Shown here piece after piece: positions 383-42,374 of a stretch of DNA of 43,144 nt. The notes under the pieces are model-generated. The model saw nothing but the letters and a program-made list of their open reading frames with translations, made no database searches and was not told where the DNA came from. The translations under genes were made by a program, and so were the position numbers. Position 1 is the stretch's first letter, and each line of letters begins with the position of its first letter. The stretch comes from a virus (taxonomy: Duplodnaviria; Caudoviricetes): IMG/VR virus record IMGVR_UViG_3300032257_000567, positions 1 through 43,144 of that record; one strand, written 5' to 3'.

Positions 383-1579
383 TTAAATTGCTAAACTTAG
401 CCAATCCCCTCCACGTATATCATCATATTTTTTAGTCATTCTTTCATCTTTATGGCCCAATAATTCTTGGGTGTTGATTCCTTGTTTTTTGTATAGACGT
501 TCTGATAGTGATCGGATTTCGTGGAATGTGGGTGGTTCTTTTCCCATCCATTCTAGGTTGGTTTTGTTGCGACATCGGGTGAACATTCGTGAAATTGTGT
601 CTTTCCATACAGGATCACCTGGATTGCTGGTGGAGTAGTTGCGGGTGTGGTGGATGAGGTGTGGGGAGATTATGCCGGTTCGTTTGCATAAGCCTATTAC
701 GTCGCCCACTGATAGCCCTATGGCGTCCAGGGTGAGGTTGAGGGGGATTTTGATCATGGCTCCGGTTTTTTGCCGTGTGGCGTAATAATAATTATCTTCT
801 ATGAAAGAGTAGGGCATTAGTTGGCTATCACCTTCCAAATATTCTCGCCATTGTTTGTGCCAGTCTGCTTTTCGCTTGAATTGAGCCAATGCCAGGTCTT
901 CTCGTGCCTGTCCTGTGGTAATCGCTAGTAACATTACGTTTTCTTGCCATAAGTCTTTTGGTGAGGCGTGTGTACGTATTGTGTTGAATTCCTGAATGTT
1001 GGTTATTCTTGCGCGTTTTACTTTGGCTTTTGGGTTTCTGGTAGTTTCCCAGACGTTGGGATGATCGGGTGGTAGCGCTCCCTCTGATTTTGCGTCTTTC
1101 CATACGTCGATCATTGTTGATCGTATTACCTGCGCCATACGATGTTTGTTTTGTTCGGTGTAGGTTGTTAAACATGCATTTGCGTGTTTGACTGTAATTA
1201 AATCAAGTGGGAGATTTCCTAAATTTTCAACGACATTAATGAGTATATTTTTTTTGACTTTTAGTGTGTTGGATTTGAGTTCGCGTGATATGCATATTTC
1301 GTTATAGCGATCTGCAAATTTTTTAAGGTTTTCACATTTTGATTTCGGCGTGGTGTTGGTGGCGATGGCATGCACTCTTGCTTCGGCTACTTGTGCGTAA
1401 ATAATTGCGTTGAGCTGTTTTGCGCGGGACTTTGCTAGTTCTGCATTTGAACCCAGACCGTGAAATGTGCCCGTGCGAATGTCTTTGTATTGATAGTAGG
1501 TTTTGTTTGTGCGTTTATCCAGGCTTGAGTAGAGATTGTCGATAGCATCTTTTTTGTTGTTTCGTGGGCGTGGTGACAT
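383..1579 (-). CDS. int: Lambda-type tyrosine recombinase (integrase)
   Basis: N-terminal arm-binding-like region (NLY...YYQYKD..TG.FHGLG); catalytic motifs TGQAR, FHEIRSLSERLY, LLGHK..MT.KY. Confidence 0.95.
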   Translation of the reverse strand: MSPRPRNNKKDAIDNLYSSLDKRTNKTYYQYKDIRTGTFHGLGSNAELAKSRAKQLNAIIYAQVAEARVHAIATNTTPKSKCENLKKFADRYNEICISRELKSNTLKVKKNILINVVENLGNLPLDLITVKHANACLTTYTEQNKHRMAQVIRSTMIDVWKDAKSEGALPPDHPNVWETTRNPKAKVKRARITNIQEFNTIRTHASPKDLWQENVMLLAITTGQAREDLALAQFKRKADWHKQWREYLEGDSQLMPYSFIEDNYYYATRQKTGAMIKIPLNLTLDAIGLSVGDVIGLCKRTGIISPHLIHHTRNYSTSNPGDPVWKDTISRMFTRCRNKTNLEWMGKEPPTFHEIRSLSERLYKKQGINTQELLGHKDERMTKKYDDIRGGDWLSLAI

Positions 1580-1594
1580 GGCGGTTCTCTTTTT

Positions 1595-1822
1595 TTAAGC
1601 AGCTTTAACGCTTTGTAGTATTTTATTGACGATTGGGTCATCAATTTCTGTATCTGATTTCCGAAGTCCTATATATCTGGCTGTATCTTCGACCTGGTAT
1701 TCTCTGCCTACTTTAATTGGAGGCGGGTAGATTTGGCCGGTGCGTGCCCAGCTTCTTAACGTTCGCAGGCTGTGTGCCTTGCTGAATGTTTTTTTATCCC
1801 ATTCTTGTAGTGTGATAAGCAT
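1595..1822 (-). CDS. xis: Excisionase
   Basis: TLQEW...TLRSWARTGQIYPPPIKVGREYQV, lambda Xis-like; directly upstream of int. Confidence 0.9.
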   Translation of the reverse strand: MLITLQEWDKKTFSKAHSLRTLRSWARTGQIYPPPIKVGREYQVEDTARYIGLRKSDTEIDDPIVNKILQSVKAA

Positions 1823-1858
1823 ATTGATGCCTTCTTGGTTTTTGACGCCTATTTATAG

Positions 1859-2551
1859 TTAGATGCTTAATGATAAATTCTCTTCATTTTCGATTTGTCG
1901 ATCAAGCGATACGTTTTTCGCGTCATTTACGCCTTTCATAGTTGCTAATATTTCGTCTGGATTAGGTTTTCTAATATTAGGCTTTCTTGCATTTTTTAGA
2001 TTGTCAAAATGCGCGTCAACAAGCTCTCGCTTGAGTATTACTAGGCTTTTACCGTCAGAAAAATGTAAATCTACTTTTCTTTCGGAAACTATCAAAGCTA
2101 TTCGCCTTGAAATTTCTTTAGCAAAACCTAGTCGATAATAATTTTTATTCGATACACCTTTAATATCTGCTCGGTTAAGCAGCCTATCGCAAGTCTCAAT
2201 TAAATAGTCATGCGTGTATTTAGCAATTATCGCGTCAGACGTAAAACCCCTAAACTGGAAAGTGACTTCTTTATATGCGATTTTAACAACAGCTTGGGAG
2301 TCGTTTAGATGGGCAACGCTTGCCGCAATTGCTGATACCCACACTGGTTTTCGTGGCGGCTTAAACTTTCCATCAGAAGTACCAAATGAATCATTATCAT
2401 TAAACAGCAAATCTTCTTTGCCAATCTGGTATTTATCCATCATGGTTCTAGCGCGTTTAGCGGCAATCATTGCCTCGTTTGGGCTGGATGAATCACTAGC
2501 CATATCTAGTAAGTTTTTTATTCTTGAAAGTATTTTTTTATCTTTACTCAT
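1859..2551 (-). CDS. DUF2786 domain-containing protein (cassette 1 ORF)
   Basis: KILSRIKNLLDMA...SPNEAMIAAKRARTMMDKY N-terminus typical of DUF2786; stop codon lies within GTTAGATGC. Confidence 0.8.
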   Translation of the reverse strand: MSKDKKILSRIKNLLDMASDSSSPNEAMIAAKRARTMMDKYQIGKEDLLFNDNDSFGTSDGKFKPPRKPVWVSAIAASVAHLNDSQAVVKIAYKEVTFQFRGFTSDAIIAKYTHDYLIETCDRLLNRADIKGVSNKNYYRLGFAKEISRRIALIVSERKVDLHFSDGKSLVILKRELVDAHFDNLKNARKPNIRKPNPDEILATMKGVNDAKNVSLDRQIENEENLSLSI

Positions 2552-2578
2552 CCCGATTCCTTATTAAGTTAAACTCGC

Positions 2579-2663
2579 ATCTAACAAAAACATAGAACAG
2601 ACGCGGGTAAGCGTTGTTTGTTTTCTGTTGTTGTGGCGCGCTGTTCATGTAATGTCGTTATGT
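2579..2663 (+). other. attC-like recombination site 1
   Basis: R'' ATCTAAC, 5-nt spacer, L'' CATAGAAC, AG(A)CGCG, loop, CGCGCT, L' GTTCATG, 7-nt spacer, R' GTTATGT; two unpaired bases on the left arm. Confidence 0.8.
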
Positions 2664-3080
2664 GTTCGTCTGGGCTTGTTCAAATATCGAGTTAAAATCT
2701 GGCTTTATAAAGTGTGTCCAGTATTTTTCATCAAATACATTATCTAACGGTGATGCACAACAAACGCTTGGCGGTTCTTCAAAATTATTAAAATGAAAGA
2801 ATAAGCAGTCACCTATGTCTTCGTGCCAATCTTCTGTTTTTTGTAATTTAGGGTTTTTGCATTCATAGCTAGCGCCAGCTAAAAATGCTTCACGAATTCC
2901 CCAGCCAAACCAAGCGTAGGCGTCTTTGAAGTCACTTGTATCTAATACTGAATCAACATAATCATAAGCCGCGTTTACGTCGGGGTGTATAGGGTTGTCA
3001 CTATCGTGATCATTTCCACGCTTACTATGTTCTGGTGTTAAATCCTTTTGTGGGTATTCTTTTCCAGTTTTCTTAATCAT
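2658..3080 (-). CDS. Phage hypothetical protein (cassette 2 ORF)
   Basis: GGAG RBS before ATG at 3080 (the track start at 3113 lies inside attC2); WHED...EEPP...PLD...THF motif resembles small phage early proteins. Confidence 0.7.
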   Translation of the reverse strand: MIKKTGKEYPQKDLTPEHSKRGNDHDSDNPIHPDVNAAYDYVDSVLDTSDFKDAYAWFGWGIREAFLAGASYECKNPKLQKTEDWHEDIGDCLFFHFNNFEEPPSVCCASPLDNVFDEKYWTHFIKPDFNSIFEQAQTNT

Positions 3081-3098
3081 TTTGTTCTCCAATGTGCC

Positions 3099-3160
3099 AC
3101 ATAACCACAACATTAAACGCGATCTCCGCTAGCGCTGCGGCTTATGTATGGACGCTATAC
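3099..3160 (+). other. attC-like recombination site 2
   Basis: R'' ACATAAC, 5-nt spacer, L'' CATTAAAC, GC-rich centre, L' GCTTATG, 7-nt spacer, R' GCTATAC (GTT changed to GCT). Confidence 0.65.
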
Positions 3161-3493
3161 GTCTTCATTTAGTAACTTGATTGCATCATCAATCAGCTGT
3201 TTGTGTTCTTCTTTATCGAGTTTCGCAATGGCTAACCAAAGTAGCTTTTCCAGCTTATCAAATCTTTCAGGGTAGTTGCTTCCGAGGCCGCATTGTTTTG
3301 CCATGCTTTCGCCCCATTGCTCAATAATATTTGGTAGCTCAATTCCATAGTTATCTTTAACGTGTAGTTGTGCGATTCGGTGCAATTCCGATAGTGTGAG
3401 GTGATTTCTATCTGTGTATCCAGCATCAAATGCCCCAATCATTGTGCTAACAAGGTTATTAATAGCATCTGCTTTAATCTGGTTTTCTGTCAT
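3155..3493 (-). CDS. Phage hypothetical protein (cassette 3)
   Basis: GAGAGGA RBS before ATG at 3493 (MTENQIKADAIN...); an in-frame upstream start at 3607 with its own GAGGA is also possible. Confidence 0.65.
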   Translation of the reverse strand: MTENQIKADAINNLVSTMIGAFDAGYTDRNHLTLSELHRIAQLHVKDNYGIELPNIIEQWGESMAKQCGLGSNYPERFDKLEKLLWLAIAKLDKEEHKQLIDDAIKLLNEDV

Positions 3494-3635
3494 AGTGATT
3501 CCTCTCGTATAAGCTTGTACAGTTTTTCCATTATTGCTATTCACATAAGCCCATGCAGTTAATTTAGGTTTTGTTTTCTTGTGACTGCATTGCATTAAAT
3601 TTTTCATGGCTTTCCTCAATCTTTACGCCTAGTAG

Positions 3636-3773
3636 TCACATCAATTTTAAATGGCTTAACAGCCAATAAGCCCATTCACCAATTTGATACACTCCTAACA
3701 ATGCTAAAGGGATAAGTAATTTTATTGTTTTTTGAAATGCCTCGATAATTTTTGAGAAATCTGGAACAATCAT
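3636..3773 (-). CDS. Small single-TM hypothetical protein, 45 aa (not in ORF track)
   Basis: Read by hand: MIVPDFSKIIEAFQKTIKLLIPLALLGVYQIGEWAYWLLSHLKLM; starts 2 nt after the stop of the upstream ORF. Confidence 0.55.
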   Translation of the reverse strand: MIVPDFSKIIEAFQKTIKLLIPLALLGVYQIGEWAYWLLSHLKLM

Positions 3774-3775
3774 AT

Positions 3776-3919
3776 TCAGTCACTTTTACCGTTTAGCCAG
3801 TGAACTCGTTGAGATGCTTCCTCGGAGCTGTCATGATCACTTTCAGCAATAAACTTCCCGTCTGGATTGTAGAACCCAACAGTCCACAAATGTTTTTCTG
3901 ATTTTATATAAACATACAT
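3776..3919 (-). CDS. Small phage hypothetical protein, 47 aa (not in ORF track)
   Basis: Read by hand: MYVYIKSEKHLWTVGFYNPDGKFIAESDHDSSEEASQRVHWLNGKSD; strong AGGAG RBS; resembles a recurrent small phage protein. Confidence 0.7.
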   Translation of the reverse strand: MYVYIKSEKHLWTVGFYNPDGKFIAESDHDSSEEASQRVHWLNGKSD

Positions 3920-3936
3920 TTCTTTCTCCTTTTTAC

Positions 3937-3988
3937 GTCTAACAATAAAATTAAGCAGGTAAATCTAAGCACCTGGGTAATCTTATTC
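3937..3988 (+). other. Degenerate attC-like site 3
   Basis: R'' GTCTAAC, 5-nt spacer, L'' AATTAAGC, then AGGT...ACCT stem; right arm eroded (CTTATTC in place of GTTRRRY). Confidence 0.45.
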
Positions 3989-4043
3989 GCATTTTAAATG
4001 CTTAAGTAACGTGGCTTTAAAATTGTCGTATCCATCGGCGTTT

Positions 4044-4103
4044 TCAAAGGCGCTCCATTTGTGCGAATAGGTGATTGTTTAGGTCGATAAGTTTGTTTTT
4101 CAT
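4044..4103 (-). pseudogene. Truncated phage gene (N-terminal 19 codons only)
   Basis: GAGG RBS, then MKNKLIDLNNHLFAQMERL-stop, which I recall as the N-terminus of a longer common phage protein. Confidence 0.55.
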
Positions 4104-4168
4104 TTTGCACCTCTTTTTAAGATTGTTTTCTTACTCTGCCGGCGGCAAGTTGCTTTTGTTGTGATTTG

Positions 4169-4534
4169 TTAATTCCGGGTTTCCGCTATTTCTTCAAATG
4201 TTTTCTGATAAACAGACGTTATTGTGCAGCCTTGGATAGCTACATGACTTCCATTCACGCCAATGCCTGGGCCTCGATATTCTGCATCAGCGAAAATAAC
4301 TAAGTCTAGATTGTTTAAGTTGCCACCATGACAGTTAAACGTAACTGGTTCTGTAGTTACAACATCATGTGCTTTGCAATCAGAATTAAATTTATTGTAA
4401 TGATATAGGTCTTCTATTTCTTCACCGGATATATAGCCATCTTTATATCCTAAATCGTGTCCAGTTTTATTTCCTATAAAAAAACCAGAAATAAGAGATG
4501 AGCAAAAAACTATTATTATTGCTAGATATTTCAT
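4169..4534 (-). CDS. Hypothetical protein with N-terminal signal or TM segment
   Basis: MKYLAIIIVFCSSLISGFFIG hydrophobic N-terminus; ATGA overlap with the upstream gene. Confidence 0.65.
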   Translation of the reverse strand: MKYLAIIIVFCSSLISGFFIGNKTGHDLGYKDGYISGEEIEDLYHYNKFNSDCKAHDVVTTEPVTFNCHGGNLNNLDLVIFADAEYRGPGIGVNGSHVAIQGCTITSVYQKTFEEIAETRN

Positions 4535-5040
4535 ATGACATACCCAATACGGTCAATTTCCCTTGTGTTATTTGATTTATTTTTTTTAGGAAATTTTGGG
4601 TTATTTTCCATTTCTTTAAGTCGCTTTAATTTGAATTCTTCCATCGTCATTAGTATTTTTGCTGGGTTGCCTGCGCAAACAACATTAGATGGAATGTCTT
4701 TTGTTACTACGGAACCTGCGCCGATTATGGTGTTGTCTCCAATATGTACGTCGGGTAGGATTATTGCGGCAGCGCCAATATATACGTTGTTGCCAATGAT
4801 TGTTTTTGCTATTTTTGTTGCTTTGAGAGATTTAGCTGTACTCGCGTCATGAGAAAATATCATCGCTCTTGGTGCCAGTGTTACATCGTCGCCAATTTCA
4901 ATGTGACTGGTATGGCCTTGATCGATGAATACGCCTGGCATCATGGCGAAGTTTTTACCTACTTTTAGCCCTTTTTTCTTGAGCGCTTTTATTGGATTTC
5001 GGCGATATAAAATACGCTCATATGATTTTTTAATATTCAT
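4531..5040 (-). CDS. Hexapeptide-repeat (left-handed beta-helix) O-acetyltransferase
   Basis: IEIGDDVTLAP, IIGNNVYIGAAAIILPDVHIGDNTIIGAGSVVTKDIPSNVVCAGNPAK. Confidence 0.9.
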   Translation of the reverse strand: MNIKKSYERILYRRNPIKALKKKGLKVGKNFAMMPGVFIDQGHTSHIEIGDDVTLAPRAMIFSHDASTAKSLKATKIAKTIIGNNVYIGAAAIILPDVHIGDNTIIGAGSVVTKDIPSNVVCAGNPAKILMTMEEFKLKRLKEMENNPKFPKKNKSNNTREIDRIGYVI

Positions 5041-5147
5041 TTTTTTACCAGTTCAAATTGATAGTTTTGATAAACAAGTGAGAATCCGGCGTCGATTATT
5101 TTATTTAGGTCGACGATTTTTGTGTTTGGGTCGATTTTGATTGTCAT
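5037..5147 (-). CDS. Small hypothetical protein, 36 aa (not in track)
   Basis: MTIKIDPNTKIVDLNKIIDAGFSLVYQNYQFELVKK; GAGG RBS; ATGA overlap with the acetyltransferase. Confidence 0.45.
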   Translation of the reverse strand: MTIKIDPNTKIVDLNKIIDAGFSLVYQNYQFELVKK

Positions 5148-5148
5148 G

Positions 5149-5307
5149 TTATGCCTCGATAAATTTGTTGTTTTCTATTTCGATACTGATATTGATTTGA
5201 ATCGTTTTGTTGTGTGTTAATGGTATGCTCAAAATGTTGATTTCATTTCCGATGAACAACTGTGCGCATAGTTGCACAGTTGTCCATAGCGCTTTGATTT
5301 TTTGCAT
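5149..5307 (-). CDS. Small hypothetical protein, 52 aa (not in track)
   Basis: MQKIKALWTTVQLCAQLFIG...KFIEA; GGGGA RBS; fills the operon gap. Confidence 0.4.
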   Translation of the reverse strand: MQKIKALWTTVQLCAQLFIGNEINILSIPLTHNKTIQINISIEIENNKFIEA

Positions 5308-5366
5308 CTTAGTATCCCCGCATTCCGTTGCGTTGGCTTTTCGCCTATTATTTTTATGATTAATGT

Positions 5367-5401
5367 CGCAAATCCTAATGTGTCAGTTGTTAGGATTTGC
5401 G
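5367..5401. terminator. Perfect 12-bp inverted repeat (terminator or RNA-processing hairpin)
   Basis: CGCAAATCCTAA-11 nt-TTAGGATTTGCG just downstream of the DUF2303 gene; no clear U-tract. Confidence 0.4.
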
Positions 5402-5411
5402 TGTACATGGT

Positions 5412-6224
5412 TTAAAGTTTTGCTACTAAAAATAAGCCGGTGTTCATGGCTCCGCGGACATTTTCTATTATGTCGCTGACTGCTGCTTCGTGGGTTACAT
5501 GTGATTCGATGAGTTCGTACCACATTGTCAGTTGGCCTTCGCCAGTAATGCGGTAGCGAAATAGGGCGTCAAGTTTGTAGGCATCACCGTTTTGAAATAA
5601 GCGAACACCGATGGTGATTTGCTGCGGAATTTTTAGTTTTCCGCTTTGTCCTGCTTTACTTGAAATGGTTTCTTCGAAAACAAATTGTGTTTCGCCATTG
5701 TCGAGGCGGGTGCCAGATTTGAAATTCACTGTTTTGTTGCTTTCGAGGGTTTTTGTCATTTCGAGCATGTCAGCGCCGACTGGATCGATGATGGTTTTTT
5801 GGTTTTGTTCGATGAAGCGTGCGAAATTAACCTGACTCATTTCGCGTCCATCGTTTTCTTTCCAGTTTTTCCATTCTTCGGTCAAGGGGCAGTTGTATGT
5901 GGCTTTGTGGTCACGGTTATCGGCCTGGCCGCTGATTTTGTGGTAATCGATGGTGGCGAGAAATTTGGCTTTGTCGATGTCGCATTCGATTATTGAATCT
6001 TCGGTGGCAAATCGGTTGTAGTAGGCGATAAAACTTTCTACATCACCTAAAACTCGATTTGCTTCAATGCGTAATGGGCGTTCGAGCAGTTCTTTGTGTA
6101 GGTCGATTTTTAAATCTTTGTGATACATAAACGCAGGTATGCCGTTTATTTCGAGCTTTTCGAATTTGCTTGCTGCACCGGCTCTCATGCAGGTTTCTGC
6201 AATGTTTGGATTTTCCTGTTCCAT
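5412..6224 (-). CDS. DUF2303 (YfdQ-like) phage protein
   Basis: SFIAYYNR, TEEWKNW...MSQVNFARFIEQN, FKSGTRLDNGETQF, KIPQQITIGVRLF motifs. Confidence 0.85.
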   Translation of the reverse strand: MEQENPNIAETCMRAGAASKFEKLEINGIPAFMYHKDLKIDLHKELLERPLRIEANRVLGDVESFIAYYNRFATEDSIIECDIDKAKFLATIDYHKISGQADNRDHKATYNCPLTEEWKNWKENDGREMSQVNFARFIEQNQKTIIDPVGADMLEMTKTLESNKTVNFKSGTRLDNGETQFVFEETISSKAGQSGKLKIPQQITIGVRLFQNGDAYKLDALFRYRITGEGQLTMWYELIESHVTHEAAVSDIIENVRGAMNTGLFLVAKL

Positions 6225-6602
6225 TTAGTTTGCCTCCTGGGCGTTTTTAAATTGCGTTGGTTGATTGTTTGGAATTGTGGTGAATTCCAATGTTTGTTGA
6301 TTTGGATCGTTGCGTTGCAAGTTGCCTTGCGGTGTTCCAAAGAAGATGGTTGATGCGGCTGGGAACTGAGGTATGTCGCCTTTTACATCGCCGCGCAGTT
6401 CGTATTGGCCGCTGGCGCGACCAATAGGTGCGACATTGATTTTGAGGGTTACGGAACCTTGTTTGCCAACTTCTCGTACGGCTTGTACGACCTGGCTAAG
6501 TAACTCGGATAGTTCGGATTGTGTGCGACCTTCACGTAGTTCTTTGACGGTGTGTTGGAATAGGTCTGGTCTGCATTGTGAATCTGGTGGTGTTCCTGGC
6601 AT
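6225..6602 (-). CDS. Conserved phage protein usually paired with DUF2303
   Basis: AGGAG RBS before ATG at 6602; ELREG...ELSELL..VV.AV.E.GKQGSVTLKI...IFFGTPQGNLQRNDPNQ; first gene after PL. Confidence 0.75.
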   Translation of the reverse strand: MPGTPPDSQCRPDLFQHTVKELREGRTQSELSELLSQVVQAVREVGKQGSVTLKINVAPIGRASGQYELRGDVKGDIPQFPAASTIFFGTPQGNLQRNDPNQQTLEFTTIPNNQPTQFKNAQEAN

Positions 6603-6643
6603 GTTTGTGCTCCTGAATTGTAGTTGTAGACGCAACAATCAAG

Positions 6644-7278: not shown

Positions 7279-7923
7279 TTATTTTAATATTCGCCTATGC
7301 TCAATGACCGGACCAATGAGTTTACCTGACTTGTTATTGACGAAGTTAAATTCAGGGTAGTCACTATTGCTTGGAGATAATATGACTTGAATGTTGCCAT
7401 CTTCTTCATAGCCTTGTAATTTATATTTGGCTATAAGGTGCTGGTTTGGGTTGGTTAATTTTGCCAATATTGTGTCGCCTGGTTGAGATTCTAAGTCTGG
7501 GTCTATTATGACTATGTCTCCCTTAGTAATACTAGGTGCCATTATGTCGCTGGCAGCTATCAATGCAAATGTGTTGTTAGATACGTTTCGTTTTGCGGCT
7601 TCTTCCATGTATATATGTGCTGTTCCCGGTGCTGATTTTCCGATATTTGGTTCATTTAAAAGCGGGATTTCCGCTACTTTGTCGCCGTTTGAGGAAACTA
7701 AATGTGCTTCGTTAATTTTTGAAAAATATTCCGGGTTAATATCGGCGGGCGATAGCATGTGATTGATCGCGCCTAGTAAGTTGGGTATTTTTTCTAGTGG
7801 AATGCTTTCGCGGGCAAACCAGCTTCGGATGGTGCTTTCGCTTTCGTTCAATTTTGCGGCTAATTCCTTTGTCCCGCCACATATTTTCACGATTTGTTTA
7901 ATTTTTTCCCAATCTGGTTTCAT
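7279..7923 (-). CDS. cI: CI-like repressor (HTH plus S24-like C-terminal domain)
   Basis: HTH ELAAKLNESESTIRSW; C-terminal GDIVIIDP..PGD...LSPSNSDYP...LIGPVIEHR; divergent from cro. Confidence 0.85.
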   Translation of the reverse strand: MKPDWEKIKQIVKICGGTKELAAKLNESESTIRSWFARESIPLEKIPNLLGAINHMLSPADINPEYFSKINEAHLVSSNGDKVAEIPLLNEPNIGKSAPGTAHIYMEEAAKRNVSNNTFALIAASDIMAPSITKGDIVIIDPDLESQPGDTILAKLTNPNQHLIAKYKLQGYEEDGNIQVILSPSNSDYPEFNFVNNKSGKLIGPVIEHRRILK

Positions 7924-9286: not shown

Positions 9287-9923
9287 TATTTTGATTGGGC
9301 TTGCTGGTCAGGCTGGGAGCGGTAAGGATACCGTCGCTGATTATTTAGCATCGGATTTTGGGTTTTCTCGTTTTGCGCTTGCAACGCCGATTAAGTCGCA
9401 TTTGCATGGGGTTGTGGGTTTGTCTGATGAGCAGTTGGATGGTGATTTGAAAGAGGTTGTTTTGCCGGCGTTGGGTAAATCGCCCCGGGAAATGATGCAG
9501 GATTGCGGGGATTCGTTTCGGCGATATTTTGGTGATGATGTGTTTGTTTCGATTTTGTCTCGCCAGTTGGATTATGCGCGGGGTTGTTTTGCTTCTGGCT
9601 CTTTGCGGTATGGCAATTTGGGTGGGCCGGAGTTTAGTGTTGTTGTGACTGATTTGCGTTTGAATAATGAGGCTGACTGGATTCGTTCACAGGGCGGTAC
9701 GGTTTTGCATATTGTTCGTGATGCGGCTGCTCCGGTGCGTGAGCATGTGACTGAGTGTGGTATTGCATTGCATCGTGATGATTTGCAGGTTGGTAATAAC
9801 GGTTCTATTGATGATTTGCTTAAAAAAATCGATACGATTGTTTTGGATGTGTTTGAAGGGGATCGTGTTGTGCCGGTTTGTGATGGTGTTGACGAACGTG
9901 CGGTTGCATTCGGTGCGATATGA
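9279..9923 (+). CDS. Deoxynucleoside monophosphate kinase
   Basis: AGGAGG RBS; IGLAGQAGSGKDTVA P-loop, SPREMMQ, VVTDLRLNNEADWIR, H.TE.G, NNGSIDDL. Confidence 0.88.
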   Translation: MSDILIGLAGQAGSGKDTVADYLASDFGFSRFALATPIKSHLHGVVGLSDEQLDGDLKEVVLPALGKSPREMMQDCGDSFRRYFGDDVFVSILSRQLDYARGCFASGSLRYGNLGGPEFSVVVTDLRLNNEADWIRSQGGTVLHIVRDAAAPVREHVTECGIALHRDDLQVGNNGSIDDLLKKIDTIVLDVFEGDRVVPVCDGVDERAVAFGAI

Positions 9924-10105
9924 CGCAGGCGCTTTACAATGATCCCACATTGGAAGCTGCGCAACGTTTGGAAATTCAGGAAAAGCGTTGTGATGTTTGT
10001 GAGCGTGCGATTTGGTTGTCTACGGGTGGCTCGGTTTGTTCGCAGGGTAAGAAGTTTCCTTTTTGTAAGAGTGATCGTAAGCATGGGTTTAGGTTGATTT
10101 CTTAA
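9920..10105 (+). CDS. Small Cys-containing hypothetical protein
   Basis: CDVC...C...FPFC; ATGA and TAATG coupling on both sides. Confidence 0.6.
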   Translation: MTQALYNDPTLEAAQRLEIQEKRCDVCERAIWLSTGGSVCSQGKKFPFCKSDRKHGFRLIS

Positions 10106-10998
10106 TGGCGATTAAGCTGAATAATGCTGAGCTAGAGCGGTTGCGCGGTGTGCGTCATGAGGTGTTTGTGTTGTATGTGCGGTTGCGTGAGCGTATGGAT
10201 TACGCGACGGGTCTTGTTGGGCAGCGTCACGGTTGTGGTGTGTCCTGGCAGGGCTTGCGCGAGGATTTGTATGTTGAGCCGCATAAGGGTTATGAGAGTG
10301 GTAGTCCGAGTAAGGATGCTTTGCGACGAATGGGGGCGGCGTTGGTAAGGTTGGGGTTGTTGCTTAATTTAAGTGTGGGAAAACGATTAATTTTTAAGTG
10401 TGTTTTGGCTGATGCGGATTATTCCGCAAAAAATAAAGCCGCCACTAAGCCGCCATACCCTGACACCATAGAAGCCGACACGTTGAAAACCAGTGAGCAT
10501 GCGGGTTTAAATGGTGAAGCCGCCACAGAAGCCGCCATACCACAAACAGCAAAAGCCGCCACACATCCGGTATCCGGTAAAACAAATAATAACTCAACAC
10601 GCGCGCGAGGTTCTGCTTTTCAATCGCCCATTGATGATTCGTTTCAAGTTTCGGCAGCTTTGGAAATGTTTGTTCGCTTAAAGTTGCAGCCTGATCCGCC
10701 TGATGTTGAATTGAATCGATTGTTGTTTATTGAGCATTTCAGTGGGTTGATTGATGAAACAACAAAAAAACCATTTGTGGCGGATGAAAAGGGAAAAGAG
10801 AAGCTTTTTCGAAAGTGGTTGTTACGCGCTAAGCTGATTCAGCAGCGTGATGAACAAAAGCGGAATATTTCGCCTGGGAATAAAGTTCATGAAAACAGTA
10901 GATCTTTGAGTGTCTTTGAAGAAATTGAGAAAGCGAATTCTGGGGCGAGAGATTCAGAAATCAATTCAATTATTGAAGGGGAGCATGCCAGTGAATAA
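10105..10998 (+). CDS. Replication initiator (O-like)
   Basis: Position; N-terminal wHTH-like region; central iteron repeats in the coding sequence. Confidence 0.7.
   Translation: MAIKLNNAELERLRGVRHEVFVLYVRLRERMDYATGLVGQRHGCGVSWQGLREDLYVEPHKGYESGSPSKDALRRMGAALVRLGLLLNLSVGKRLIFKCVLADADYSAKNKAATKPPYPDTIEADTLKTSEHAGLNGEAATEAAIPQTAKAATHPVSGKTNNNSTRARGSAFQSPIDDSFQVSAALEMFVRLKLQPDPPDVELNRLLFIEHFSGLIDETTKKPFVADEKGKEKLFRKWLLRAKLIQQRDEQKRNISPGNKVHENSRSLSVFEEIEKANSGARDSEINSIIEGEHASE
10436..10561 (+). repeat. Iterons of the putative phage replication origin
   Basis: AAGCCGCCA at 10436, 10447, 10517, 10529 and 10553, plus AAGCCGACA at 10472; A-rich tract follows. Confidence 0.75.
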
Positions 10999-11626
10999 TA
11001 TCGATAAGTCAGACATTGAATGGTTGTTTACAACTTTGATGCGTTTGGTTGGTGCGCTTAAATGGCGATCGCAAAATGGTGTGAAGGACGATGGCACCTG
11101 GTTGACGGTGTTGCGCGGGATGTCCAGAAATCAAATTGAATTGGGTGTTCGTCGGTTTACTGCGCTGTGTAATTCGAACAGCAGGGGAGAAGTATGGGCG
11201 CCAAGTGCTTTGGACTTCCGTGATTATTGTTTTCTCAGTGTTGCAGAATTGAATATACCTGGAGTTGAGGAGGCGTATAGCGATGCGGTTAATCGTATAT
11301 GGGATCGCCATCCGATTGTTTATCTAGTGAATGAGAAAATGTCGAATTCAAGAGGTAAACCTGGTGCTTATGTGAATTGGCGATTGAAATCAGAGTCTGT
11401 GACACGGCCTTGGTTTGAGCGCATTTACAATAAATTTGTGGAGCGAGCGAGGAAAGGTGAAAAGCTTGTGTTGCCCATGCATATTATTCGAGATCATCGT
11501 CGTATTTTGGAGAATCAATCAAACAAAACATCGGTGGGCGTTAGTGTTCAGGCTAGCGTGCAAGAACATCTGAAAAAGATGAGAGCGAAGATAAACGGGG
11601 AGCCGCGTAAAACGGGTACGAATTAA
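10985..11626 (+). CDS. Replication protein P-like helicase loader
   Basis: W...LRGMSRNQIELG...WAPSALDFRDYC...IPGVEEAY...HPIVY motif; GGGGAG RBS; follows the O-like gene. Confidence 0.7.
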   Translation: MPVNNIDKSDIEWLFTTLMRLVGALKWRSQNGVKDDGTWLTVLRGMSRNQIELGVRRFTALCNSNSRGEVWAPSALDFRDYCFLSVAELNIPGVEEAYSDAVNRIWDRHPIVYLVNEKMSNSRGKPGAYVNWRLKSESVTRPWFERIYNKFVERARKGEKLVLPMHIIRDHRRILENQSNKTSVGVSVQASVQEHLKKMRAKINGEPRKTGTN

Positions 11627-41725: not shown

Positions 41726-41760
41726 GTAATACATGTTACATAAGCAATTTGGAGCCGCAC

Positions 41761-42045
41761 ATGGCAATTAAATACTACGATACTCCGTTTCATGTTAATC
41801 ATGATGCCGAAACAGCAATTAATATGGCTATGAAAGTAGATCTGTCTATTAAAATCGCAAAGCTAATTAAAGAGCGTGGTTTAACTCAAGCGGATGCTGC
41901 AGAAATGTTGGCTGTTCATCAATCAAGAATATCAGAGCTTGTTAATGCGAAAATTGAAAAATTTACGATTGACACAATGGTTGGTATGCTAGATAAGCTT
42001 GGGTTTCAGGCACAAATTGTCATATCAGAAAAGCAGGTGGCTTAA
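41761..42045 (+). CDS. XRE-family HTH protein (HigA-like antitoxin)
   Basis: GGAG RBS; GLTQADAAEMLAVHQSRISELVNAKIEKFTID.M..ML.KLG. Confidence 0.82.
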   Translation: MAIKYYDTPFHVNHDAETAINMAMKVDLSIKIAKLIKERGLTQADAAEMLAVHQSRISELVNAKIEKFTIDTMVGMLDKLGFQAQIVISEKQVA

Positions 42046-42374
42046 ACGCCTAGTTCTAACTTGAGCGCTTGGAGGCGCTTGCCGGCTAGTCTCATCGCTT
42101 TTACATCATTGCCGTTGGTTGTTTTTTCAAATGAATGCAGAACAAAAACAGTGTCTTGATACTTGGTTATATATAGACATCTAAACGCTGGGCTGCCATT
42201 AATGATAAGTTCAATAACACCTGGGCCAACGCTATTTAAGTGTTTGATCGGTAATTTAGGGTCTTGATCGAGCTGAATAAGCATTAGATTGAGGCCAAAA
42301 TCATCCTGAATCTCATCAGGAAACTCTTTATATTCACGCTCAGCGGCATCGCTGGCAAATGCGAAGTTTTTCAT
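42042..42374 (-). CDS. RelE/ParE-like (phage Gp49-type) toxin
   Basis: EFPDEIQDDFG..L..IQ, VGPGVIEL, FRC.Y, VFVLHSFEKTT. Confidence 0.82.
   Translation of the reverse strand: MKNFAFASDAAEREYKEFPDEIQDDFGLNLMLIQLDQDPKLPIKHLNSVGPGVIELIINGSPAFRCLYITKYQDTVFVLHSFEKTTNGNDVKAMRLAGKRLQALKLELGV

Follow-up and report, generated by a model that had tools for sequence, protein, structure and literature searches.

Reversed attC-type gene cassettes beside a likely attI core in the early operon of a lambdoid prophage

Location and content of the array

Integrons are treated as bacterial devices, with cassettes that all face one way for the promoter Pc to read. Here we describe integron-type gene cassettes in a phage, in IMG/VR virus record IMGVR_UViG_3300032257_000567, which was analysed over its whole length of 43,144 nt (the window). 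The window is a complete 43-kb virus record and represents a lambdoid prophage; its leftward early operon holds three consecutive cassette units (Table 1), whose genes are inverted relative to the attC recombination sites that close integron cassettes. The first unit opens at a core that is likely to be an attI entry site, with its crossover point 35 bases from the start of xis. The original prediction, made from the sequence alone, had described the units as an integron-type array without an integron integrase (IntI); it made no remark on gene orientation, and missed both the inverted polarity and the attI-like core.

Table 1. Coordinates of the array, of the phage genes around it and of comparable arrays elsewhere
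Feature	Position	Strand	Remarks
int	383-1579	-	
xis	1595-1822	-	
Lambda-type integrase and excisionase	383-1822	-	Just outside the attI-like core; PF09003 (arm-binding), PF00589, PF07825; not an IntI
attI-like core, likely entry site	1847-1864	+	L box GCCTA, then 6 nt and G^TT; crossover point 1858/1859
Cassette 1, intact	1859-2657	+	Between crossover points; 9/9 end complement; closed by attC site 1
DUF2786/DUF7168 gene (phrog_421), inverted	1859-2551	-	Stop codon TAA, reverse complement of R'
attC site 1	2579-2663	+ (top strand); - (bottom strand, recombinogenic)	R'' 2579-2585, L'' 2591-2598, L' 2643-2649, R' from G2657
Cassette 2	2658-3154	+	8/8 end complement; inverted ORF 2658-3113, likely start 3080, function unassigned
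attC site 2, decayed	3099-3160	+	GCT replaces the invariant GTT; weak inner stem
Cassette 3, body	3155-3943	+	7/9 end complement; inverted ORFs 3155-3619, 3636-3773, 3776-3919
attC site 3, remnant	3937-3990	+	R'' and L''-like box, matching right arm absent; local hairpin
Repressor	7279-7923		
Iteron-like repeats	10435-10565		Repeated AAGCCGCCA words; in the gene preceding the P-like helicase loader, right of the array
P-like helicase loader	10910-11626		
Reversed integron of phage G439	L241:55-4308		Inverted array, then its own IntI; cassette genes and intI co-directional
Inverted phage-type cassettes next to attI, chromosomal integron	L199:921-1840 (G006)		MazG-like gene common to L001
Inverted Tad2-like anti-defence cassette, position 1, chromosomal integron	L214:208-587 (G020)		Same genus as Methylomicrobium sp. 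Wu6

All six core sequences from which the units had been defined are present where they were placed, and the complementarity claimed for the two ends of each unit holds. The R' at the start of each of the three units complements the R'' of that same unit, in support of the earlier view that these are integron-type cassettes and not ordinary hairpins. The combination of a G, a stop codon and an inverted repeat at the end is found with just two of the 56 genes called in the window, those of units 1 and 2. The array DNA has 37-39 % G+C (37 % in cassette 1) and negative skew, whereas int-xis and the late genes have 43 % and a positive skew.

The DUF2786/DUF7168 family to which the gene of unit 1 belongs is represented, with about 30 % identity, in 317 records of phages, and a viral scan with the unit 1 protein itself returned no relative. 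The N-terminal half of open reading frame (ORF) 2 has homologues adjoining an integrase in genome G044; ORF 2 has no match in 50,697 phage records and matches one of 401 genomes, where only a half site is left at the locus. No Pfam or PHROG family was found for the ORFs of cassette 3. The contigs of one sequencing run, from which this DNA may have come, contained no unit joints, which, these being contigs only, carries no weight either way. An Rfam scan of positions 1500-5500 gave no match at E 5, and a promoter scan stayed at chance level (13 vs 18).

The attC sites

Site 1 has the geometry that had been claimed for it, with R'', 5 nt and an 8-nt L'', and two extrahelical bases at 2594 and 2601. 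It is the sole match of a geometry scan across the 43 kb, the background of which is 0.2 matches per shuffle and 0.02 in the score class of site 1 (100 shuffles). A check with an attC model had been proposed in the original prediction; in a covariance model built from 24 intI-linked bacterial attC, site 1 scores 37.9 bits with an E-value of 2e-6, and does so on the minus strand alone, the next best match having 9.8 bits. The proposed folding of site 1 gives a probability of 0.097 for the recombinogenic form, inside the range of the reference sites and with 10/10 R and L pairs, and the corresponding values are 2e-5 for site 2 and 2e-10 for site 3. When folding is left unconstrained, the stability of sites 1 and 2 does not exceed that of shuffled sequences (z -1.2 and -0.2).

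Sites 2 and 3 fail the covariance model, so the window contains three cassette-like units and one intact attC instead of the three functional attC sites originally proposed. The description given of the closing sites is accurate for site 1, which is a full attC; site 2 does reach R' but is decayed, and site 3 is a half site that forms five of the ten R/L pairs. The two departures of site 2 from the expected R' leave the product of ORF 3 unchanged (one falls in a valine codon, one in the stop codon), which suggests that the site decayed while the ORF 3 protein was kept. Site 3 includes a hairpin (3956-3975) that is terminator-like on the minus strand. Close to it, at 4010-4103 on the same strand, is a 19-codon ORF with an early stop, the other frame of which extends into site 3; it looks like a frameshifted phage gene.

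Inverted polarity of the cassette genes

The attC face the plus strand and every ORF in the units lies on the minus strand, so that the ORFs are inverted relative to attC, and the window lacks the Pc-type co-orientation of genes with attC. The stop codon of the last gene in each unit is the reverse complement of R', and the 5-nt spacer and both extra bases sit on the arm that adjoins the gene start. Since backward insertion of an ordinary cassette by way of its top strand would leave the extra bases on the opposite arm, the cassettes of the window are built inverted.

The same polarity prevails in a survey of viral contigs picked by an attC pattern that is blind to ORFs. Ninety loci were found in this way and 74 used, the repeats L229, L230, L239, L248, L250 and L251 and the last 10 of the 90 being left out; units were taken between consecutive model matches, and polarity was assigned by scoring starts, ribosome-binding sites and stops, with no real gene caller. 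As many as 104 of 144 units are inverted, with 10 canonical, 16 ambiguous and 14 without a polarity assignment, although related phages are included and the units are therefore not independent events. Counted by locus, 36 of 49 have inverted units only, six are mixed, four canonical and three unresolved. The control, five intI-linked arrays, gave 2 inverted and 19 canonical units out of 26; the Vibrio and Pseudoalteromonas stretches L194-L196 supplied almost no cassettes for this control set.

The attI-like core, a likely entry site

There is no attC to the left of G1858. The attI sites of 12 bacterial integrons were located as the G^TT that complements the R'' of the first cassette, and a profile was made from the nine of them that have the 6-nt spacing. 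With this profile G1858 ranks first among the 1,764 GTT sites of the window, at 9.5 compared with 6.2 for the next, and attC right arms score at most 2.4. The G is preceded by C in 22/22 attC right arms and in 0/8 phage entries, and the core of the window is identical to the attI of G020 at 10 of 12 positions. In loci fetched afterwards, and thus out of sample, an L box with a score of at least 6 is found at 8 of 24 entry junctions, at 0.46 % of 4,814 background GTTR sites and at one of 170 inner attC junctions. We take the G1858 core to be a likely attI entry site.

We note that two distant prophages share a gene before xis-int, with identical bases just outside the array entry (L001:6435-6752 and L122, about 9680-9990).

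Related phages and other lambdoid loci

Scans with the integrase and with DUF2303 found as relatives only L001/L003 and an identical prophage, L002. The latter copy lies within a host contig, adjoining serS and crcB-like genes, and the best match to the SerRS of this contig has 76 % identity (400 gammaproteobacterial genomes scored). The L001 phage is 75 % identical in DNA to the window over int-xis and again over 4538-6613, with unrelated genes between, and in the same slot it carries five attC of the same polarity as those of the window. Its unit ends are complementary at 10, 9, 10, 8 and 7 of 10 positions, and several of its genes start within the attC loop. These other cassettes at the same place bear out that the region is a variable slot, in support of the original prediction that early genes are gained or shuffled. 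A hexapeptide-repeat acetyltransferase gene of the early operon (window 4531-5040), outside the array, is retained in L001.

Among 160 loci with related lambdoid integrases, L096, L122 and L094 carry inverted cassettes upstream of xis-int; L163 and L173 have attC matches in other settings or in a setting left unassigned. No attC was detected in 114 other lambdoid int loci, including 40/40 of the Enterobacterales lambdoid loci.

Several further arrangements were seen in passing. An 89-kb viral contig (L007:1675-5117) has eleven attC of a single polarity within 3.4 kb, with inverted genes and no IntI in the record. A lambda-family integrase gene adjoins Vibrio-type attC in a Vibrio penaeicida contig (L173:1578-3826), apparently inside a superintegron or at its edge. 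An attC-like hairpin with a 7-nt spacer recurs in an orientation opposite to that of its array (L197:65-127, L215:18230-18292, L216:3473-3540 and L331:2235-2309), the L215 copy adjoining a transposase-like operon; these hairpins were kept out of the training set. At the right end of the window (41749-42374), convergent helix-turn-helix and Gp49/DUF891 genes form a toxin-antitoxin-like pair beside an Arc-like gene. Replication, terminase, portal, capsid and contractile-tail genes make up further parts of the prophage.

Integron integrases in phages and likely hosts

The recombinase of the prophage is of lambda type only, as had been stated: the window has no match to TIGR02249, the NCBIfam integron-integrase model, tblastn with an IntI has no match in the window or in L002, and there is no intI remnant between xis and the crossover. 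Phage G439, one of five records searched for IntI, does encode such an enzyme (TIGR02249, 267 bits against a cut-off of 265). This is a 53-kb phage genome, 99 % complete and with terminase, portal and capsid genes, in which an inverted array that includes two methyltransferase genes has its entry 55 bases away from intI. On sequence grounds, array and enzyme together make up a complete reversed integron in a phage.

Inverted cassettes are also present in bacterial chromosomes. The chromosomal integron of Methylomicrobium sp. Wu6, which is flanked by metabolic genes, has inverted genes in cassettes 1-3, and the product of cassette 1 is 41 % identical to an L001 cassette protein (pairwise E 1e-23), both belonging to phrog_4856; in G020, of the same genus, a Tad2-like gene lies inverted in the first cassette (Table 1). 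The original prediction had left the choice between a host IntI acting in trans and some unknown recombinase. We favour IntI and hold the unknown recombinase to be less likely, since a phage of the same layout has an adjoining IntI and chromosomal integrons hold the same inverted cassettes. Genomes that carry related prophage integrases encode IntI in 10 of 18 cases, and the family to which the closest host relative belongs does so in 11 of 16 genomes, which are relatives and not the host itself.

Interpretation and alternatives

We put at about 0.7 the probability that the prophage is an integron platform without its enzyme, with a likely attI core beside xis and three attC-type reversed cassettes that were probably inserted by a host IntI. 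On this reading, the partner that IntI would recombine with the attI core, at G1858^T, is the bottom strand of a circular cassette in its folded state. The leftward early promoter is likely to read into the array from its far end, so that expression and retention would be limited to cassettes with a reversed gene. Each new cassette, entering beside xis, would displace the older ones outward, which fits the gradient of decay from the intact site 1 to the remnant at site 3; the older cassettes would become fixed, their attC decaying while the protein is conserved.

The phage origin probably corresponds to the iteron-like repeats to the right of the array, and the bottom strand is then likely to be on the lagging-strand template of a leftward fork. 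Such a location of the bottom strand raises excision, according to the available text of PMC13108822. As prophages are induced by the SOS response, this prophage and IntI would be induced together; induction of intI by that response is stated in the accessible part of PMC8876359.

A number of observations weigh against this reading. Sites 2 and 3 are absent from 11 covariance-model matches that reach down to 7.4 bits, and site 1 itself is atypical in its 7-nt L'-R' spacer (6/239 attC) and in having A as the first extra base on the top strand (5/239 attC). The attC scores in L001 (35.9, 20.9, 33.8, 21.6 and 21.6) show no steady fall with distance, the alignment of the window with L001 breaks at 1825 and 4538 and not at crossover points, and the viral scans found no close relative with gain or loss of a unit at G^TT. 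A cruder and noisier count of polarity gave a weaker result (20 units inverted, 13 canonical and 17 ambiguous). One genus supplied six of the nine attI of the profile, and the motif had been spotted before the profile was built; in eight attI cores from the closest host relative's family, only 1-5 of 11 positions agree with the core of the window. Lastly, the L122 genome has no IntI and the L096 genome only a partial one, both genomes being perhaps incomplete.

An alternative, which we regard as unlikely, is that there is no true attI: the first cassette would have entered at an ordinary GWT (attG) site through off-target action of IntI, later ones would have been added by attC x attC recombination, and the L box would reflect selection among GWT sites for those that IntI binds best. 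Insertion of cassettes by IntI at genomic GWT sites is described in the available part of 10.1101/2022.09.11.507474, no L box reaches a score of 4 at 13 of 24 entry junctions, and the window core is a poor match to the attI of the presumed host family. Several of the entries without an L box, however, resemble missed attC arms, the L box is about 70-fold enriched at entries (33 % vs 0.46 %), and G439 has the same type of junction at the normal attI position beside intI.

It is improbable that the array is a fossil, left by a phage that once had its own intI, as G439 does, or that took up the block of cassettes by ordinary recombination, and now inert, changing only through homologous or illegitimate exchange between phages. 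The decay of two of the three sites, the breakpoints with L001 away from G^TT and the very existence of a phage with its own IntI all agree with such a history. Against it, site 1 retains 10/10 pairs, complementarity persists between the ends of the units, the start of xis is 35 bases from the crossover with no remnant of intI, and inverted phage-type cassettes occupy the first position of intact chromosomal integrons.

Another recombinase, whether the neighbouring Int of lambda type or an enzyme like Xer, is a very improbable agent, even though int-xis occupies the usual place and direction of intI here and likewise in L001, L096 and L122. The sites are recognised by a model of IntI-linked attC and show its strand asymmetry, attC are found in 0/114 other lambdoid int loci, and we reject lambda Int as the catalyst on these grounds; in addition, most of the arrays have no tyrosine recombinase detectable with an IntI query in the fetched flanks. 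It is scarcely credible that these are ordinary cassettes reversed by top-strand recombination, which does invert cassettes according to the accessible text of PMC5027507 but puts the extra bases and the 5-nt spacer by the next G^TT and not, as here, by the gene start, or chance hairpins and terminators between early genes, as the terminator-like hairpin of site 3 and the non-significant free folds of sites 1 and 2 might suggest, since for site 1 chance is rejected by its E-value of 2e-6 and its being the sole geometry-scan match.

Extending the platform reading beyond this prophage, phages of integron-bearing bacteria might run a mirror-image integron, in which a minimal attI core and a pool of their own of cassettes, made from phage genes in reverse polarity, are served by a host IntI or, in certain phages, by one that the phage encodes, the cassettes spilling over into bacterial integrons. 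We offer this tentatively, as a possibility with the odds somewhat against it. The cargo would comprise methyltransferases, MazG-like proteins, Tad2-like anti-defence proteins and DUF2786 proteins; phage early operons would be a birthplace of new cassettes, and phages would use the same machine with which bacteria stock anti-phage defences. The reversed form with its entry core would let phages tap IntI to renew their early genes, likely counter-defence genes among them. It would also explain a class of short phage genes that lack a known function and offer a marker by which to find them, and it bears on the origin of cassettes: families of genes resident in phages are also found in cassette form, the stop codon then lying within the core site. 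Partly decayed as it is, the copy in the window is valuable because it illustrates the phage layout clearly, together with the entry core, a phage that possesses the enzyme and chromosomal integrons with the same cassettes.

Comparison with known integron systems

Whether such an arrangement had been reported before was left open in the original prediction; clusters of attC in phages have in fact been published. The text available of Qi et al. 2023 (PMC9892861) reports 17 attC clusters without an integron integrase (CALINs), 3 complete integrons and one In0 among 10,705 genomes of phages, and recombination of five of six phage attC by IntI1. These CALINs resemble the array of the window in having small genes bounded by attC in phages without intI, and the sites tested in that study share its geometry and score 24-42 bits with the covariance model used here. 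The CALIN of Pseudoalteromonas phage H101 (PH101; L203:30918-32987) already has inverted genes, with four attC on the plus strand and three annotated coding sequences on the minus strand, whereas the TJE1 array of the same study is of canonical polarity, unlike the window. In H101 we also note two units that share their first 90 bases and the attC and differ in cargo. A CALIN needs at least two detectable attC on one strand; L001, with five, would qualify, and the window, with one site passing the covariance model, does not.

Neither inverted genes nor an attI core in the arrays of virulent phages is mentioned in the text of Qi et al. 2023 that is available. Reversed phage cassettes are likewise not described in the accessible portions of PMC4889954, PMC8352920, PMC11551772, PMC13676570, 10.1101/2024.07.02.601686, 10.64898/2026.03.17.712381 and PMC12901181, and we found neither the inverted layout nor an attI core of this kind described in a literature search with a coverage that stopped short of subscription journals, figures and bioRxiv supplements.

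The structure of the attC and the match of R' and R'' within each unit are like those of sedentary chromosomal integrons, as is the location of an attI-like core at one end, with the gene of a tyrosine recombinase directed away from the units (PMC4889954 and PMC5027507, in the parts available). The window differs from these in lacking intI and in its inverted genes, and, with expression from the far end, the newest phage cassette would be read last, unlike in sedentary integrons. Single attC sites lacking integron-integrases (SALINs) and attG insertions, as presented in the available part of 10.1101/2022.09.11.507474, share with the window a single model-positive attC without an integrase, and show that IntI is able to work at genomic sites beyond integrons. 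The window differs from them in having its three units in tandem, an L box that goes further than the GWT consensus, and a slot that is fixed and common to other phages. Judged by its sequence, the window would work like an integron array, yet it is not a complete integron and by our own model falls short of a CALIN. Phage attC clusters as such are known, and the window presents them in an inverted layout with a likely entry core.

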